DNA of 64,000 nt from Ignavibacteria bacterium (GTDB lineage Bacteria; Bacteroidota; Ignavibacteria; Tepidaquicellales; OLB5): assembly GCA_019912545.1 (NCBI GenBank), contig JAIOIK010000204.1, positions 79-64,078 of the forward strand. The letters run 5' to 3'. Below, piece after piece: positions 20,512 to 42,020 of the stretch (positions are counted from its first letter, which is position 1; each line of letters starts with the position of its first letter). The notes beneath the pieces are model-generated. The model was not told the DNA's origin. It made no database searches and was given only the letters and a program-made list of their open reading frames with translations. A program made the translations under genes and the position numbers.

Positions 20512-20523
20512 ATGTTTCTTTTT

Positions 20524-20555
20524 GGAGTGCCTGCCTGCAGCAGGCAGGCTTTGAC
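20524..20555 (+). repeat. 32-bp palindromic element, copy 1 (GGAGTGCCTGCCTGCAGCAGGCAGGCTTTGAC)
   Basis: It has a 9-bp stem GCCTGCCTG/CAGGCAGGC. An inverted copy is at 21105..21136. Confidence 0.8.
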
Positions 20556-20607
20556 TGTATCAAAGCATATTAAAAATTAAATTTAATATATAGAAAGATT
20601 TTACAAT

Positions 20608-21060
20608 TTGGATTCTAAAAAATTAGCTTTTAAACTGGCTGAATTTGCATTAAGTAAAAAGGCTGAAGATATTAAGATACTTGATCTGCGCGGGATCACT
20701 CCGATCGCAGATTTTTTTGTGATCTGTTCTGCGCAATCAGAGCCGCAGGTTAAAGCTGTCTCCGATGCCGTTCTTATCGGCGCAAAAAATGAAGGGGAAA
20801 CTATCTGGCATAAAGAAGGCATGAACATGCGCTCATGGGTGCTGCTGGATTTTGTTGATGTGGTTGTGCATATTTTCCTGCGCGATACACGGCAGTTTTA
20901 CTCTCTTGAAAAGCTTTGGGGTGATGCAAAGATAACCGAAGTGAGCGATGAGGTGCCCGTCAAAAAAGCGGTTAAGAAAGCTGCCAAGCCCAAAGCTGTA
21001 AAGAAACCGACTGTAAAAAGTCCGGCAAAACCTAAGAAGAATATCGTAAAGAAGAAATAA
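20608..21060 (+). CDS. rsfS: ribosome silencing factor RsfS with a Lys/Ala/Pro-rich C-terminal tail (TTG start)
   Basis: It contains DIKILDLRGITPIADFFVICS...W.LLDFVDVVVHIF, and the tail reads KKAVKKAAKPKAVKKPTVKSPAKPKKNIVKKK. Confidence 0.85.
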   Translation: MDSKKLAFKLAEFALSKKAEDIKILDLRGITPIADFFVICSAQSEPQVKAVSDAVLIGAKNEGETIWHKEGMNMRSWVLLDFVDVVVHIFLRDTRQFYSLEKLWGDAKITEVSDEVPVKKAVKKAAKPKAVKKPTVKSPAKPKKNIVKKK

Positions 21061-21104
21061 AGTTTTTGGAGTACATCAACGCAGTTATTGGTTGCATTGA
21101 CGCG

Positions 21105-21136
21105 GTCAAAGCCTGCCTGCAGCAGGCAGGCACTCC
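21105..21136 (-). repeat. 32-bp palindromic element, copy 2 (inverted flanks)
   Basis: The sequence is GTCAAAGCCTGCCTGCAGCAGGCAGGCACTCC. Confidence 0.8.
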
Positions 21137-21146
21137 GAAAGATTAC

Positions 21147-21279: not shown

Positions 21280-21522
21280 ATGGAAAACTCAGAAACTGCA
21301 AAATTGTTAGAAAGGATCACTTTTGATCCCCGGGTAATGGGAGGAAAGGCACTCATTCGCGGACTCCGTATTTCTGTAAAACAGGTAATAAAAGCGCTTG
21401 CATCAGGTGTTCCTGAAAAAGATATATTATCCGACTATCCTGAGCTCGAGAAAGAGGATATACAGGCAGTATTATTGTATGCCTCCAATCTTGTTGAAGA
21501 AGAGCGGGTATTTGAAGTATAA
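21280..21522 (+). CDS. DUF433-family antitoxin-like protein
   Basis: It contains DPRVMGGKALIRGLRISV...ILSDYPELEKEDIQAVLLYA. Confidence 0.8.
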   Translation: MENSETAKLLERITFDPRVMGGKALIRGLRISVKQVIKALASGVPEKDILSDYPELEKEDIQAVLLYASNLVEEERVFEV

Positions 21523-21540
21523 CAACTATCTCTTTACAAT

Positions 21541-21894
21541 ATGAAATTCCTGGTTGATGTTGGTGTAAGTAACAAAGTTGAAGAATATTTGAAGAGCATT
21601 GGGTTTGATACAAGTTGCATTAGGCATATCAACGCAAGAATGAATGATCTTGAGATAATCCAAATTGCATCCGAAGAGAACAGGATTATCTTAACAATGG
21701 ATAAAGATTTTGGTGATTTAGTTTTTAAATCAGGCAAGTCCCATGCAGGTGTTCTATTGCTGCGTTTAGAAGATGAGAGTTCTGATAATAAGGTAAAAAT
21801 TGTGAGATCAATTATTGAAAATTTCTCAAATGAATTGAGTAATAATTTTTGTGTTTTCCATAAGGGGAAATTGAGAATTAGAAAAATGCTTTGA
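21541..21894 (+). CDS. DUF5615 / Mut7-C PIN-like toxin partner of DUF433
   Basis: It contains MKFLVDVGVS...ILTMDKDFGDLV and lies 18 nt after the DUF433 gene. Confidence 0.7.
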   Translation: MKFLVDVGVSNKVEEYLKSIGFDTSCIRHINARMNDLEIIQIASEENRIILTMDKDFGDLVFKSGKSHAGVLLLRLEDESSDNKVKIVRSIIENFSNELSNNFCVFHKGKLRIRKML

Positions 21895-36041: not shown

Positions 36042-36245
36042 TTATGTTAACAACTCCATGTTCTGTTCATACTTCAATTTCTTATCAACGGTCAAAAGTA
36101 TATCAAAATTATCATCAATGGCAGCCTTCAGCAAACTTCCGTTCTTTAAGTTTGCCCATCCCTTTTCTCCTACAGTAAATGTATCATATTCAATAAGATG
36201 AAATTTTAGCTTTCTTGGTAAACATTCATCTAACAGAATTTTCAT
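36042..36245 (-). CDS. DUF5615/PIN-like toxin, apparently truncated or frameshifted at the C-terminus (67 aa)
   Basis: It reads MKILLDECLP...FDILLTVDKKLKYEQN. After the stop, another frame continues 'NITIVVFDVTKKQN*', which looks like the displaced family C-terminus. Confidence 0.55.
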   Translation of the reverse strand: MKILLDECLPRKLKFHLIEYDTFTVGEKGWANLKNGSLLKAAIDDNFDILLTVDKKLKYEQNMELLT

Positions 36246-36461
36246 TTAGTCCGGGTTTGTTTCAATCAGGAGTTTTTCAGCAGTTTCCAGCAATATAAGA
36301 GCCTGCTTTCTATTCACGGAAGAAAAGTCCTCAAGAAATGTTTCGATAGTCTCACCTGTCTCTATATAGTCAAACAAATTCTTAATTGGGACTCTTGTTC
36401 CATTAAAAACCAGAGTTCCACTGAGAATTTCAGGATCTATATTTATTACTTTTTGACTCAT
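36246..36461 (-). CDS. DUF433-family antitoxin-like protein
   Basis: It contains DPEILSGTLVFNGTRVPIKNLFDYIETGETIETFLEDF, and its stop abuts the toxin start. Confidence 0.75.
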   Translation of the reverse strand: MSQKVINIDPEILSGTLVFNGTRVPIKNLFDYIETGETIETFLEDFSSVNRKQALILLETAEKLLIETNPD

Positions 36462-38114: not shown

Positions 38115-38564
38115 TTATCTTTTCACTTCAAAAAAGCTTCTTATGATCTCTCCGCACTTCTCATGCATTATTCCGCCCGTAACACTTAAACTGTGATTAA
38201 GAGATGAATTGTTCGTAATGTTAAGCACTGAGCCGCATGCCCCTGACTTGTTATCAAACGCGCCAAAATACAATGCTTCCATTTTTGAAAGCACTATTGC
38301 ACCCGCACACATTGAACATGGCTCAAGTGTAACATACATTGTGCAGCCAAGCAGTACTTTTGATGAAAGATATCCTGCTGCAGATGTTATGGCTATTATT
38401 TCGGCATGAGCCGTCGGGTCGTGCAGTGTTTCAACCTGGTTATATCCTTTGCCAATAATACGGTTTTCAAAAACCACAACTGCTCCAATCGGAATTTCCT
38501 TCATTTCATAAGCATTCTCGGCTTCCTTGTACGCGTGCTGCATCCATATTTCGTGTTTTGTCAT
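38115..38564 (-). CDS. tadA: tRNA adenosine(34) deaminase
   Basis: It contains the HAEI and PCSMCAGA zinc motifs. Confidence 0.9.
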   Translation of the reverse strand: MTKHEIWMQHAYKEAENAYEMKEIPIGAVVVFENRIIGKGYNQVETLHDPTAHAEIIAITSAAGYLSSKVLLGCTMYVTLEPCSMCAGAIVLSKMEALYFGAFDNKSGACGSVLNITNNSSLNHSLSVTGGIMHEKCGEIIRSFFEVKR

Positions 38565-38571
38565 AATTTGA

Positions 38572-38997
38572 TCACTGATTATTCTGATTGATGGATTTCG
38601 CAGATTTTGATTCTAAATTAGAGCTTATAAATCTTTTGAATTGCAGGCTCTTAGATCCAAAATTTATTAACAGTCCAATTTCAAGTTTGAATGCTTTAAG
38701 ATAATTAATGATCTGGGCATAATGCTGGTCGTTAAGCTCACTAACAGCTTTTAGTTCAATCAAGACCTTTTCCTCAACCTTGAAATCAACAATTCGAGTG
38801 CCCACAAGTACATCATCATAGTAAACACTCTGTTCAATTTCCCTTGAAAAATTAAGTCCGGATTTTTTTAGTTCAATTGCCAGGCTTCTTTGGTAAATTA
38901 CTTCCGGAAATCCATTACCAAGAAATGAATGAACTTTCATTGCACATCCAATAATTTTTTCTGTTAAATCGGAATATTTATATTTTTCGTTAATCAA
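38572..38997 (-). CDS. GxxExxY protein (TIGR04256-like; TTG start)
   Basis: It contains IIGCAMKVHSFLGNGFPEVIYQRSLAIEL...VDFKVEEKVLIELKAV...INYLKAFKLEIGLLINFG. Confidence 0.8.
   Translation of the reverse strand: MINEKYKYSDLTEKIIGCAMKVHSFLGNGFPEVIYQRSLAIELKKSGLNFSREIEQSVYYDDVLVGTRIVDFKVEEKVLIELKAVSELNDQHYAQIINYLKAFKLEIGLLINFGSKSLQFKRFISSNLESKSAKSINQNNQ
38573..38613 (+). repeat. left inverted repeat of the GxxExxY cassette
   Basis: The sequence is CACTGATTATTCTGATTGATGGATTTCGCAGATTTTGATTC. It matches the reverse complement of 38990..39031 at 31/41 positions, ungapped and hand-counted. Confidence 0.65.
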
Positions 38998-39031
38998 AAT
39001 CAGTGTAATCCGTTAATCAGTTAAATCAGCG
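38990..39031 (-). repeat. right inverted repeat of the GxxExxY cassette (covers the mutS stop codon)
   Basis: The sequence is TTAATCAAAATCAGTGTAATCCGTTAATCAGTTAAATCAGCG. Confidence 0.65.
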
Positions 39032-41641
39032 ATTTTTGGTGAGCTTCTTCAGTTCCTGCAATTTATTCAATGCGTCAAGCGGAGTCATATTTTCAAGATC
39101 GATCTTACTTAGTATATCATTCAGCTCATTATCTTTATATTCAAACAGGTTGATCTGGAATTCATCTTTTCGCCTTGAGCGTTCTTCGCGCTTTTCAAGG
39201 TTGCCAAGTATTTCCTTCGCGCGCTTAGTAACTACATCCGGCAGCCCTGCCATTTGCGCAACGTGTATTCCAAAACTATGATCTGCTGTGCCGTCATTTA
39301 TTTTATGAAGGAAAATTACTTTATCGCCAATTTCTTTGACTTCAACCCTGGAGTTCTTTATTCTTGGGTAAAGACTTGCAAGTGCATTTAACTCATGATA
39401 ATGTGTTGCAAAAAGAGTCTTGGCTTTTGCCAAAGGATTTTCGTGAATATATTCTGTTATAGCCCATGCAATAGAAATCCCGTCATAAGTACTTGTGCCG
39501 CGGCCAACTTCATCAAGCAGTACGAGGCTTTTTGTTGTTAGGTTATTGAGTATGTTAGCCGACTCCTGCATTTCCACAAGGAAGGTACTTTCACCCCTTG
39601 CAATGTTGTCCATTGCGCCAACTCTGGTGAAAATTCTGTCGCAAATTCCGATCGAAGCTTTTTTTGCCGGAACAAACGAACCTATCTGCGCTAAGAGAAC
39701 AATGAGCCCAAGTTGTCTTAGGTACGAAGATTTACCGCTCATGTTAGGTCCTGTAATAATAATAACCTGGTTCACTTCGGGATTGAGATTTGTATCATTT
39801 GGTACATATTTTTCACCTGCCGGCAGAAGTTGTTCTATTACCGGGTGGCGGCCATCTTCAATCTGAATAATATCAGAATCATTTACAACCGGCCGGATGT
39901 ATTTATATTGCTCGGCGATTTCTGCAAATCCAATCAGCACATCCAGAATACCTATCATTGCGGCATTTAGCTGAATATCACCGGCAAACTCCACAACATT
40001 TAGGCGAATATCATTAAACAGCTTGGCCTCAAGCACAGAAACTTTGTCATGAGCGCTGAGTATCTTCTCTTCATACTCCTTAAGCTCCTGTGTAATAAAT
40101 CTTTCTGCGTTTACCAAGGTTTGCTTGCGAATATAGCCTTCGGTCTTATCAGCCTTAACAAGATTTGCTTTGGATATTTCTATATAATAACCAAAAACCC
40201 TGTTGTAGCTTACCTTTAAAGAGTTTATCTTCGTCCTTTCCCGTTCCTTGCGCTGATAATTCTCAAGCCATGCCTCACCTGAATTCATTATACCTATCAG
40301 TTCATCAAGCTCTTTATTGTAACCCTGTTTTATTAGACCCTTCCCGCCAATGTTTGTATCTGATGGAACAGTTACATCTTCATTAATTGAACTCTCTATC
40401 AGCATTGCAAGTTCATCAAGCTGCTTTAAATTATTATTAATATCGCTTAGTGTCTTTACCTCACTGCCTGCAAGGTATCCCTTTACTTCTGTAATTGTCT
40501 TCAGTGAATATTTCAGATTTATAAGATCCCTTGCAACGGCACGTGCAGTGGCGATCTTGGATATTAATCTTTCAAGGTCACCAATGTTTTTGAAAATAGT
40601 AATTAAATTTTTTCTTAACGGTTTATTCTCGTAGAATTCTGTAACGCATTCCTGCCGCTTTTGGATTTGCGTTAATTTCTTTAAAGGGCGGGATATCCAG
40701 TTCTTCAAAAGCCGTGCACCCATTGCAGTCTGGGTTCTATCCATGATTGATATCAGCGTACCATCACGGCTGCCTTCGGAGAGTGAAGAGATTATCTCCA
40801 GATTGCGCTTTGTGGAGTTATCCAGAACAATGTAATCACTTGTATCATATAAGGATATTTTGTTAATATGCGAGAGGTTTCCCTTTTGTGTTTCGTTTAT
40901 GTAATTCAGAATTCCTCCGGCTGCAATTGTGCCAAGCGGGTAATCTTCTACGCCAAAACCCTTAAGTGATTTTGTCTTAAATTGTGTAAGGAGTAACTCT
41001 GTGCAGTAATCGTGATTAAATATCCATTCATCCAGCTTTGTCACTGTTATTCTGTTATGAAAAACCGGATTGGGATCCATATCCAGCACACCGGCAAATA
41101 AACTCTTCTGTGATTTTGATATTATTACCTCGGCGGGATTGATAAGCTCTAGCTGATCTTTAATATTCCTAAAGGCTATCTCGCATGCAGAAAATTCTCC
41201 CGTGGATATATCGCAAAATGCAAGCCCGCATCTTTCATCCTTTACGAAAAAACATGCAATGTAGTTATTGCTTTTGTGGTCAAGCAGCTTATCCGAAAAT
41301 GTTAAGCCCGGCGTTACAACTTCAACTACATCACGCTTTACGATTCCTTTTGCAAGCTTAGGGTCTTCCATTTGCTCGCAAACTGCCACTTTATAACCTG
41401 CTTTTACCAGTTTCGGGAGGTAATTATCAATTGCGTGGTGTGGAAATCCGGCAAGGGCAACATCGCTTGCAGCGCCGTGAGCGCGCTTGGTTAAGGTTAT
41501 CCCCAGCACTTTCGAGGCAATATGTGCGTCTGTATCAAAGGTCTCGAAAAAATCGCCCATGCGGAAAAGCAGCACAGTATCAGGGTACTTAGCTTTAATT
41601 TGGGAATACTGCCGCATAAGCGGGGTCTGGGTTTCTGCCAT
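39026..41641 (-). CDS. mutS: DNA mismatch repair protein MutS
   Basis: It starts TPLMRQY..IK, has the Walker A motif GPNMSGKS, and is 871 aa. Confidence 0.95.
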   Translation of the reverse strand: MAETQTPLMRQYSQIKAKYPDTVLLFRMGDFFETFDTDAHIASKVLGITLTKRAHGAASDVALAGFPHHAIDNYLPKLVKAGYKVAVCEQMEDPKLAKGIVKRDVVEVVTPGLTFSDKLLDHKSNNYIACFFVKDERCGLAFCDISTGEFSACEIAFRNIKDQLELINPAEVIISKSQKSLFAGVLDMDPNPVFHNRITVTKLDEWIFNHDYCTELLLTQFKTKSLKGFGVEDYPLGTIAAGGILNYINETQKGNLSHINKISLYDTSDYIVLDNSTKRNLEIISSLSEGSRDGTLISIMDRTQTAMGARLLKNWISRPLKKLTQIQKRQECVTEFYENKPLRKNLITIFKNIGDLERLISKIATARAVARDLINLKYSLKTITEVKGYLAGSEVKTLSDINNNLKQLDELAMLIESSINEDVTVPSDTNIGGKGLIKQGYNKELDELIGIMNSGEAWLENYQRKERERTKINSLKVSYNRVFGYYIEISKANLVKADKTEGYIRKQTLVNAERFITQELKEYEEKILSAHDKVSVLEAKLFNDIRLNVVEFAGDIQLNAAMIGILDVLIGFAEIAEQYKYIRPVVNDSDIIQIEDGRHPVIEQLLPAGEKYVPNDTNLNPEVNQVIIITGPNMSGKSSYLRQLGLIVLLAQIGSFVPAKKASIGICDRIFTRVGAMDNIARGESTFLVEMQESANILNNLTTKSLVLLDEVGRGTSTYDGISIAWAITEYIHENPLAKAKTLFATHYHELNALASLYPRIKNSRVEVKEIGDKVIFLHKINDGTADHSFGIHVAQMAGLPDVVTKRAKEILGNLEKREERSRRKDEFQINLFEYKDNELNDILSKIDLENMTPLDALNKLQELKKLTKNR

Positions 41642-41727: not shown

Positions 41728-41805
41728 TTAACTTCTATTATTGCAGTTTTCAACTTCTATTGTATTCAGTATTGCTTTGTACTTGAAGAATTTCGGATAC
41801 TTCAT
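41728..41805 (-). pseudogene. 25-codon stub, possibly a truncated RelE/ParE-type toxin
   Basis: Its ATG overlaps the antitoxin stop as ATGA, and it reads MKYPKFFKYKAILNTIEVENCNNRS*. The toxin identity is only positional inference. Confidence 0.25.
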
Positions 41806-42020
41806 TTTCTACCAAGCAATTCAGCTTTAACTTCCTCCCATGATGAACCGCTATTTGGATTCCTGAAATGAGCCTTCAGCCTTCTGTCCAATTCTTCTTT
41901 TTGTTCATCTGTTAAAGGAATTTCTTCGGGCTTTGAGAGACTCTCCCAAAGGTCTTCTATTAACTCCAGTTTTTCGCTATCCGGCAGTTTCAACGCTTCT
42001 TTTAATATGTTTTGTTCCAT
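41802..42020 (-). CDS. putative addiction-module antitoxin component (TIGR02574-like)
   Basis: It contains LPDSEKLELIEDLWESL.....PLTDEQKEELDRRL. Confidence 0.65.
   Translation of the reverse strand: MEQNILKEALKLPDSEKLELIEDLWESLSKPEEIPLTDEQKEELDRRLKAHFRNPNSGSSWEEVKAELLGRK

Follow-up and report, generated by a model that had tools for sequence, protein, structure and literature searches.

The mutS-tadA junction in a 64,000-nucleotide stretch of an Ignavibacteria bacterium genome (contig JAIOIK010000204.1, positions 79 to 64,078; the whole stretch is called the window below) holds a small cassette, in which one GxxExxY nuclease gene lies between two inverted arrays of a short repeated unit. The same architecture was found around members of this gene family at many unrelated places in many phyla, similar arrays occur as hairpins without the gene, and at the mutS-tadA junction itself the cassette is present, absent or replaced among related genomes. 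We propose that the cassette belongs to a widespread, apparently undescribed class of compact selfish palindromic elements, comparable to repetitive extragenic palindromes (REP) and the REP-associated tyrosine transposases (RAYT), and that this copy is old and has been inherited vertically; we regard this proposal as evenly balanced between being right and being wrong. Such an element consists of two inverted arrays of 3-6 short periodic units around one small GxxExxY nuclease gene, whose product would recognise its own unit arrays. Nicking or cutting of the arrays would promote copying of the arms, either alone or together with the gene, and arm copying would yield the gene-less hairpins of 90-100 nt that are scattered, in tandem or nested in many genomes. 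Lying in an operon spacer, co-oriented with its neighbours, the element would be transcribed by read-through, and the copy studied here has been fixed since before several Ignavibacteria species diverged. The scheme would resemble that of RAYT transposases and REPIN hairpins (paired REP sequences), with an unrelated enzyme. Recognition of the repeats by the protein, and any mechanism of copying, are what we infer from this arrangement.

Architecture of the cassette

Three genes are arranged head-to-tail on the minus strand: mutS, then a 141-aa gene of the TIGR04256/PF13366 family, then tadA. The features of the locus are the following.

38115..38564, minus strand: tadA, downstream host gene (NF008113, E 1.4e-49; ATG at 38562-38564)
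38571..38612, minus strand: tadA-proximal (downstream) arm, five (C)TGATT units (repeat finder)
38572..38997, minus strand: GxxExxY / PDDEXK_3 gene, 141 aa (TIGR04256 and PF13366 profiles)
38992..39033, minus strand: mutS-proximal (upstream) arm, five (C)TGATT units on the transcribed strand (repeat finder)
39026..41641, minus strand: mutS, upstream host gene (NF003810, score 1035.7)

An earlier note, made from the letters of the window, had reported an ungapped match of 31/41 between 38573..38613 and the reverse complement of 38990..39031, and this count is exact. The repeat finder gives a complementarity of 33/42 (79%) between 38571-38612 and 38992-39033. The CTGATT-like units that the note saw in both arms are real: on the plus strand, AATC cores are located at 38992, 38998, 39007, 39015 and 39024 in the upstream arm, and GATT cores at 38577, 38586, 38594, 38603 and 38609 in the downstream arm. 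Within each five-unit arm the cores are spaced by 9, 8, 9 and 6 nt, with a unit period of 8-9 nt. Nine of the ten mismatches of the 41-nt register sit between the GATT cores; the remaining one is the base that follows the innermost core, beyond the arm as defined by the tool.

The gene boundaries are likewise as the note had described them. The mutS stop codon (39026-39028) is in the outermost unit of the upstream arm and the TTG start of the cassette gene (38995-38997) is in its innermost unit; the downstream arm carries the final 13 codons of the cassette gene and its stop codon. The outer end of this arm is 6 nt from the tadA ATG, which is equivalent to the 8 nt counted in the note from a boundary at 38573. 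In all TGATT-type orthologues the mutS stop codon is provided by the first repeat unit of the arm, as it is here, and in one orthologue (L044; loci are given by our own labels) the stop codon of the cassette gene overlaps the start of tadA as ATGA.

The arms are internally repetitive and the window contains 62% A+T, so that chance complementarity of low-complexity AT-rich sequence had to be considered, as the note itself had foreseen. A window-wide scan for ungapped inverted repeats of 41 nt, with a span of at most 1100, found just two pairs matching at 29/41 or better, the cassette pair (32/41) and one other, unrelated pair. Dinucleotide-preserving shuffling of the 64-kb window, repeated 30 times, gave best scores of 26-29 and never as much as 31/41; low-complexity composition does not account for the arms. 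Moreover, the units are kept in both arms across orthologues whose synonymous sites are saturated, and across phyla. Chance is refuted by these controls and its probability is virtually nil.

Inverted arrays throughout the gene family

To place the cassette in its family we compared, for each locus, the 150 nt that precede the domain with the reverse complement of the 200 nt that follow it, against shuffles, the z-scores of the flanks being obtained with mononucleotide shuffles of one flank. Three sets comprising about 207 family loci were used, and flanking repeats with z>4 were present in 57-77% of the loci, depending on the set: 57% of 83 close-relative genes in species genomes (z>10 in 24%), 37/48 loci of the subfamily represented by L011, and 55/76 loci of an independent metagenome collection. 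Control open reading frames (ORFs) of 90-260 aa in the same DNA reached z>4 in 1.9% of 670 cases and z>10 in 0.15%. Taking all ORFs of 80-260 aa in the 2.3 Mb of fetched DNA together with the window, 95 had strong flanking repeats, and 87 of these were GxxExxY-like. Arrays of GATT units were counted 141 times in 393 kb of family loci versus 3 times in 733 kb of loci selected by mutS. The earlier note had proposed to test whether other loci of the family have flanking inverted repeats of this type of unit; across the family they do.

The 80 close-relative loci belong to at least 39 unrelated genomic contexts, the mutS-tadA context being found only for the Ignavibacteria copies, and relatives at 55-70% identity are spread across many phyla; both facts speak for mobility over evolutionary time. 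Arms made of 3-6 TGATT units with a period of 8-9 nt were observed in Ignavibacteria, Hymenobacter, Cyclobacteriaceae, Paludibacter, Desulfobacteraceae and cyanobacteria, frequently with the outer terminus (T)GTCTGAAC(T)GTGATT. Some copies look young, in Hymenobacter and among several gene-less hairpins, and are near-perfect palindromes. A search for recent transposition within one genome gave L287/L290, a 3.3-kb duplicate or haplotype, and L102/L125, whose copies are 75% identical.

The repeat word covaries with the protein lineage, the unit classes having been read by inspection of the arms and not from a formal motif model. The words TGATT, GGATT and CAGAATT accompany proteins about 55-80% identical to the window protein (about 59-62% for GGATT and CAGAATT). 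CAGGAT is found with proteins at about 52-54% identity, CGCAGAT and CACAGATT at about 46-47%, CACGAA at about 40-47% in Luteolibacter and Rhodocyclaceae and also in L014 at 26%, and (R)CGCAGAG or CACAGAG at about 32%. This is plainest at the mutS-tadA junction, which carries the TGATT type in some genomes and the CAGAG type in their sisters, each accompanied by its own protein. Recognition by each nuclease of its own arrays would explain why the word changes with the protein subfamily.

A further form of the repeats was seen in a Chlamydiae metagenome-assembled genome, in which several contigs (L330, L332, L334, L335 and L338) share segments of 200-230 nt that are 99-100% identical. Each segment has a CAGAG-type arm and only the first 30-45 codons of the gene, followed by unrelated sequence, and they may be truncated repeated derivatives.

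Hairpins without the gene

Gene-less hairpins of 90-100 nt were found in Dehalococcoidia, Poribacteria, Caldilineaceae, Bacteroidales, Leptospiraceae and others, with occurrences also in Bacteroidota, Chloroflexota, Desulfobacterales and cyanobacteria, and several genomes hold more than one. The 15-mer GTCTGAACTGTGATT is present at 120 or more loci in species genomes, a figure to be set beside a chance expectation, by our own arithmetic, of about 1000 matches in 596 Gb; among the matches listed, 87/120 adjoin at least three GATT units, and the gene is within the 8-kb locus in only 8 of these 87. Many copies share the terminus TTGTCTGAAC...GTTCAGACAA. The hairpin family with the conserved terminus TTGTCTGAACTGTGATT... 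matched no Rfam family, and a search of Rfam with the window region and the hairpin arrays returned only sub-threshold matches to microRNA-like hairpins.

The hairpins are also found in tandem and nested. Around the gene in L156 (L156:283-1943) and L094 (L094:1647-3300), hairpins of about 97-117 nt made of the same units are repeated with periods of 148 and 133 nt, respectively. L266 and L276 contain hairpin arrays with a tandem period of 66-107 nt. Taken together, the tandem arrays lie either beside a GxxExxY gene or far from one. In Chitinophaga niastensis (L200:7141-7413) a hairpin of GGATT units is placed inside the loop of a hairpin of TGATT units, and together they form a 277-nt palindrome with one mismatch. 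At some loci a complete hairpin abuts the start of the gene, whose first codons ATGATTAAT resemble a unit, and in L156, L098 and L122 the gene is beside or between complete hairpins, not inside one.

Two sludge metagenome runs (X5 and X7) contain arm-like 38-mers, corresponding to window positions 38571-38608 and 38997-39034 with 4-5 mismatches, in unrelated flanks. One metagenome contig has two direct copies of an arm 85 nt apart.

The mutS-tadA junction in related genomes

The nearest genomes, in which MutS is 82-84% identical to that of the window, show four states downstream of mutS. In the first, an orthologous cassette (73-80% protein identity) has arms of the same unit (L002/L084, L044, L081, L082, L083, L085 and L086). 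In the second (L003 and L011), a paralogue at 32% identity is contained in its own inverted arrays of CAGAG units. In the third (L001), arms of the L011 type remain without the ORF, and this remnant folds weakly. In the fourth, a different hairpin occurs without a gene (L005:6601-6683, Ignavibacteria UBA2360; CCTCACTC...GAGTGAAGG, -20.1 kcal/mol, z -3.55), which is neither of TGATT nor of CAGAG type. Junctions lacking the cassette, which the note had proposed to look for, therefore exist, two of them gene-less (L001 and L005) and two with a different paralogue (L003 and L011), and every gene-less site still carries remnants of arms or another hairpin.

On the MutS tree the genomes with the TGATT cassette form an ancestral grade, and the other three states together make up one derived clade. 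Because it is ancestral on this tree, the cassette is old at this junction and not a recent insertion. L001 reads as a loss of the ORF, since it is nested beside L011. In the cassette orthologues the ratio of nonsynonymous to synonymous substitution rates (dN/dS) is about 0.07 and synonymous sites are saturated. The GATT cores are intact in all arms of the seven orthologues, except for one unit of the L081 upstream arm (GATG) and for variants of the innermost unit (GATA or GATG, in the upstream arms of L084, L044 and L085 and in the downstream arm of L083). At this locus purifying selection acts on the gene and on the unit cores alike. The description given in the earlier note, a single-gene cassette bounded by inverted repeats and without transposase, stands (profile searches matched the cassette gene to no transposase family); a recent insertion is contradicted by the tree, the saturated synonymous sites and the low dN/dS. 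No direct target-site duplication was seen around the window cassette.

Other variants were noticed at this junction. L082 has two tandem copies of the cassette gene between mutS and tadA, the second of which (L082:2984-3363) is frameshifted, and extra partial copies of the downstream arm are present in L081, L082 and L084. A metagenome contig joins position 38565 to position 39045 with 96 other letters between them, and represents a gene-less allele in a relative.

The differences between L001 and L011 amount to a clean absence or presence of the ORF between arms that are kept, as would be expected of a free-standing homing endonuclease gene: the gene would be mobile and would cut cognate gene-less hairpins, and repair would copy it into the loop through homology of the arms. 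The usual position of the gene in the loop between the arms, the covariation of units with subfamily, the nesting of one hairpin in the loop of another in L200 and the different paralogues at a single junction agree with such a gene. However, L001 looks like a loss on the MutS tree and not like an unfilled target, the gene of L156, L098 and L122 is beside or between complete hairpins, and arms of 40 nt are short for recombinational repair; nor did any genome prove to have one and the same gene at two loci in different hairpins. We judge homing of this kind quite unlikely.

Operon setting and predicted RNA stem

Both neighbours are co-oriented with the gene in 58/72 loci, and both are opposite in 3. 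For the loci with z>=5, the upstream stop codon ends at a median of 4 nt (interquartile range -4 to 8) from the outer start of the arm, and the downstream ATG is at a median of 3 nt (interquartile range 0 to 10) past the other arm. Since the ends of the arms abut the upstream stop codon and the downstream start codon, the element fills the entire spacer, and a stem between the arms would set the host stop codon beside the host start codon. On its minus strand the cassette shows no promoter-like or terminator-like site, and one low-depth metatranscriptome contig from a relative covers tadA, the arm and the 3' end of the cassette.

These observations suit an element acting at the RNA level. In a read-through transcript of mutS, cassette and tadA the arms would pair and loop out the ORF, which could create an RNase III-like processing site, or could bring stop and start codons together and so spare expression of the host operon, the start of the cassette gene being occluded. 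Folding of the RNA of window:38555-39050(-) predicts such a stem (-111.1 kcal/mol, z -2.7), the minimum-energy and centroid structures alike pairing the two arms so that they enclose the entire ORF, and the equally tight wedging of PF05635 genes, described below, points the same way. In the seven orthologous cassettes, however, we found no compensatory change: the arms match at 27.6/38 within a locus (29.0 with G-U pairs) versus 28.0 +/- 1.3 between loci. The variable R and W of the unit C-R-C-W-GATT flip independently between the arms, and columns 24 and 29 show fixed differences between upstream and downstream arms. For 24 gene-less hairpins the match is 0.71 within a hairpin versus 0.66 between hairpins, a small excess. 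Because the mismatches of the arms are uncompensated, what is conserved here is the word and its inverted arrangement, and not demonstrably a helix. The long mRNA stem advanced in the earlier note is present in the predicted fold, without the covariation that a selected helix would show in the orthologues. No family locus tested is in rRNA and no Rfam family was matched, which also speaks against a role in RNA. We consider the RNA-level explanation unlikely; it is compatible with an element that is also mobile.

The encoded protein

The cassette protein is a clear member of TIGR04256 (E 4.5e-40, 136.6 bits for a cut-off of 35) and PF13366 (E 5.5e-38, 130.4 bits for a cut-off of 22), a family with at least 8000 matches at E<1e-5. 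Alignments of 28-30 members show residues G29, E32, Y35, D71, E81, K83, Q95 and Y99 to be invariant, and all of them are present in the window protein, whose catalytic D71, E81-x-K83 and Q95xxxY99 are intact. A search of the PDB by sequence gave no match. The AlphaFold model has a predicted local distance difference test (pLDDT) of 86.6, with values below 50 for the arm-encoded tail (residues 125-141), and its best Foldseek match is the Cas4 protein SSO0001 (4ic1, E 9e-5), followed by lambda exonuclease, MGME1 and AdnAB; of these, SSO0001 and lambda exonuclease form toroidal oligomers. From this model we read the protein as a catalytically intact minimal DNase of RecB/Cas4 type. The PADLOC defence models matched neither protein subfamily, and PHROGs gave a single weak match to a family of unknown function.

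The tail is variable: proteins range from 128 to 141 aa among orthologues, with a stop codon before or within the arm, and in L011-type proteins the arm is translated as an N-terminal extension. It follows that the arms are not constrained as coding sequence. For annotation, this means that the variable C- or N-terminal tails of GxxExxY proteins correspond to read-through into the arms. The open-access literature that we searched reports no function for PF13366/TIGR04256, PDDEXK_3 being listed there as 'unknown', and contains no description of the present architecture.

A parallel in PF05635 genes

The note had mentioned a tie between this protein family and rRNA intervening sequences. No such tie was seen for the GxxExxY proteins: six rRNA signature motifs are absent from all of the approximately 207 family loci tested. 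L211, a candidate link 2.6 kb away from an rRNA operon, was rejected as a chance 15-mer match. In Pfam the name '23S rRNA-intervening sequence protein' belongs to PF05635, a family of four-helix bundles. The rRNA analogy nevertheless keeps some value because PF05635 genes show an analogous layout of inverted heptamer arrays. Among the 8 ORFs that have strong flanking repeats without being GxxExxY-like there is one PF05635 gene (L138:4000-4359), which lies between inverted arrays of the heptamer TTAATTG (element L138:3963-4444). In a small sample of six further contexts, PF05635 homologues have arrays of the heptamer GTTAAT(G/T) on both sides; these are inverted in L428, L434, L437 and L443 (z 5.7-13.5), visible in L440 and direct in L431. 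In L428, L434, L437, L440 and L443 the arrays and the gene are around positions 940-1440. A weak repeat of heptamer units was seen in L274 (z 4.5) and none in L329. The PF05635 genes are wedged among co-oriented host genes, such as type I restriction-modification operons (hsdS-hsdR), an Eco57I-like gene and trpE-trpG in Elizabethkingia, and the stop and start codons of the neighbours abut the arrays.

This parallel suggests a broader proposal, which we put forward tentatively and would sooner doubt than believe. GxxExxY nucleases and the four-helix-bundle '23S rRNA intervening sequence proteins' may both be partners of unrecognised palindromic elements wedged into operons across phyla. The arms of these elements would be made of subfamily-specific units of 7-9 nt; each protein would recognise its own units and drive copying of the arms, in a REPIN/RAYT-like or homing-like manner, and the stem would join host stop to host start, so that insertion would be phenotypically silent. 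If this is true, two very large families of unknown function gain a common, testable role. For the GxxExxY proteins, the change of repeat word with protein subfamily gives a concrete biochemical hypothesis, namely that the protein binds or cuts its own units, with candidate substrate sequences in hand. The parallel also suggests a general way for small selfish genes to sit silently in operons, and places the long-known ORFs of rRNA intervening sequences in a wider class.

Vertical inheritance and mobility

Several observations weigh against the reading of the cassette as a copy of a selfish palindromic element. No further copy of the gene and no other TGATT array is present in the 64-kb window, so that a repeat population is not visible in this genome. 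The metagenome contigs, which are fragmentary, yielded neither near-identical copies in differing contexts nor variants produced by excision or insertion. One exact protein (P0086) always has the same ruvX-...-methyltransferase neighbours across samples. Among 2.9 million viral contigs there are no close relatives and just 4 distant matches, which leaves no obvious vehicle for transfer. No target-site duplication was detected at 42 gene-less hairpins. To our knowledge, a PD-(D/E)XK nuclease is by itself incapable of strand transfer, and the open-access literature searched gives no biochemical activity for any family member. Finally, the arms need not be substrates of a nuclease, since PF05635, an unrelated family that is not a nuclease, shows a similar layout.

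Some of the same observations agree with a domesticated, immobile host nuclease gene, perhaps linked to DNA repair beside mutS, whose arrays would be its own regulatory or translational-control sites. The vertical inheritance seen at this locus fits such a gene, and so do its strong purifying selection, its conserved cores, the lack of additional copies in the window and the stable contexts of P0086. Yet the gene is lost or swapped at this very junction in the derived clade, the 39 or more context groups elsewhere are unrelated to mutS, and regulation of a single gene leaves unexplained why gene-less hairpins have spread and nested across many phyla. We hold domestication to be very unlikely, and retain the old, vertically inherited copy of a palindromic element as our working proposal.

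Other features of the window

The second inverted pair at or above 29/41 is an unrelated GC-rich self-palindrome (window 20520-20560 and 21100-21140) found on either side of rsfS (20608..21060, PF02410). It contains GCCTGCCTGCAGCAGGCAGGC within about 40 nt, matches at 36/41 as an inverted pair and has no further copies in the window; it has the look of REP-like hairpins set on both sides of a single gene. Among the housekeeping genes of the window are two pairs of DUF433 and DUF5615 (PIN-like, Mut7-C) genes, at 36042..36461 (minus strand) and 21280..21894 (plus strand), the first DUF5615 gene being shortened to 67 aa, and a lone 'Unstab_antitox' gene (PF09720) at 41802..42020 (minus strand). 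These pairs and the PF09720 gene are probable toxin-antitoxin modules.

Comparison with known systems

The modelled PD-(D/E)XK core of the cassette protein, with its D, ExK and QxxxY motifs, is shared with Cas4/RecB nucleases. The present protein differs in its small size (only about 125 residues), has no match to a solved structure at the level of sequence, and is encoded in a neighbourhood without a helicase partner or CRISPR (clustered regularly interspaced short palindromic repeats).

ORF-bearing 23S rRNA intervening sequences of Leptospira and Coxiella reportedly encode proteins of the PF05635/TIGR02436 family. They resemble the cassette in having a small ORF between inverted repeats able to form a long stem in the host transcript. 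In contrast to them, the ORF here belongs to PF13366, of unrelated fold, the approximately 207 family loci are neither in nor beside rRNA, and the stem is a prediction that compensatory change does not accompany.

Bacterial miniature inverted-repeat transposable elements and palindromic repeats, such as Correia/NEMIS, ERIC and RPE, are short gene-less intergenic palindromes with terminal inverted repeats and conserved termini (here TTGTCTGAAC...GTTCAGACAA), which are transcribed with their neighbours and have occupied and unoccupied sites among relatives, as here, where L001 and L005 are without the gene. The elements described here differ from them in showing no target-site duplication and having no transposase partner of insertion-sequence type, in the internal periodicity of their arms, and in the cognate nuclease gene inside or beside a subset of copies.

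Free-standing homing endonuclease genes include the seg and mob genes of phages, and I-Ssp6803I is a homing enzyme of the PD-(D/E)XK type. As in these, a small nuclease gene is placed between co-oriented host genes, with presence or absence and replacement by paralogues. We know of no free-standing homing endonuclease gene with flanking periodic inverted arrays; the cassette has such arrays, and is ancestral and vertically inherited.

The likeness to the REP/REPIN-RAYT system, the closest analogue, is more extended. Each RAYT has its own adjoining class of REPIN, REPINs insert into or beside other REPINs, and RAYTs are single-copy and vertically inherited (PMC3116915). In both systems a small single gene is found beside inverted palindromic repeats, with one repeat class per protein lineage, together with multi-copy gene-less hairpin doublets in tandem and nested arrangements and with long vertical persistence. 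Unlike RAYTs, the enzyme here is of PD-(D/E)XK RecB/Cas4-like type and not an IS200-like HUH/Y1 transposase, and the arms contain 3-6 units with a period of 7-9 nt instead of a single palindrome of 20-40 nt. The gene is often within the hairpin loop, close relatives are found across phyla, and dispersed doublets, not seen in the 64-kb window, number several per genome in other phyla. An unrelated enzyme and arms built as periodic arrays lead us to place the element outside the REP/REPIN-RAYT family, as a candidate for a similar way of life built on a different nuclease.

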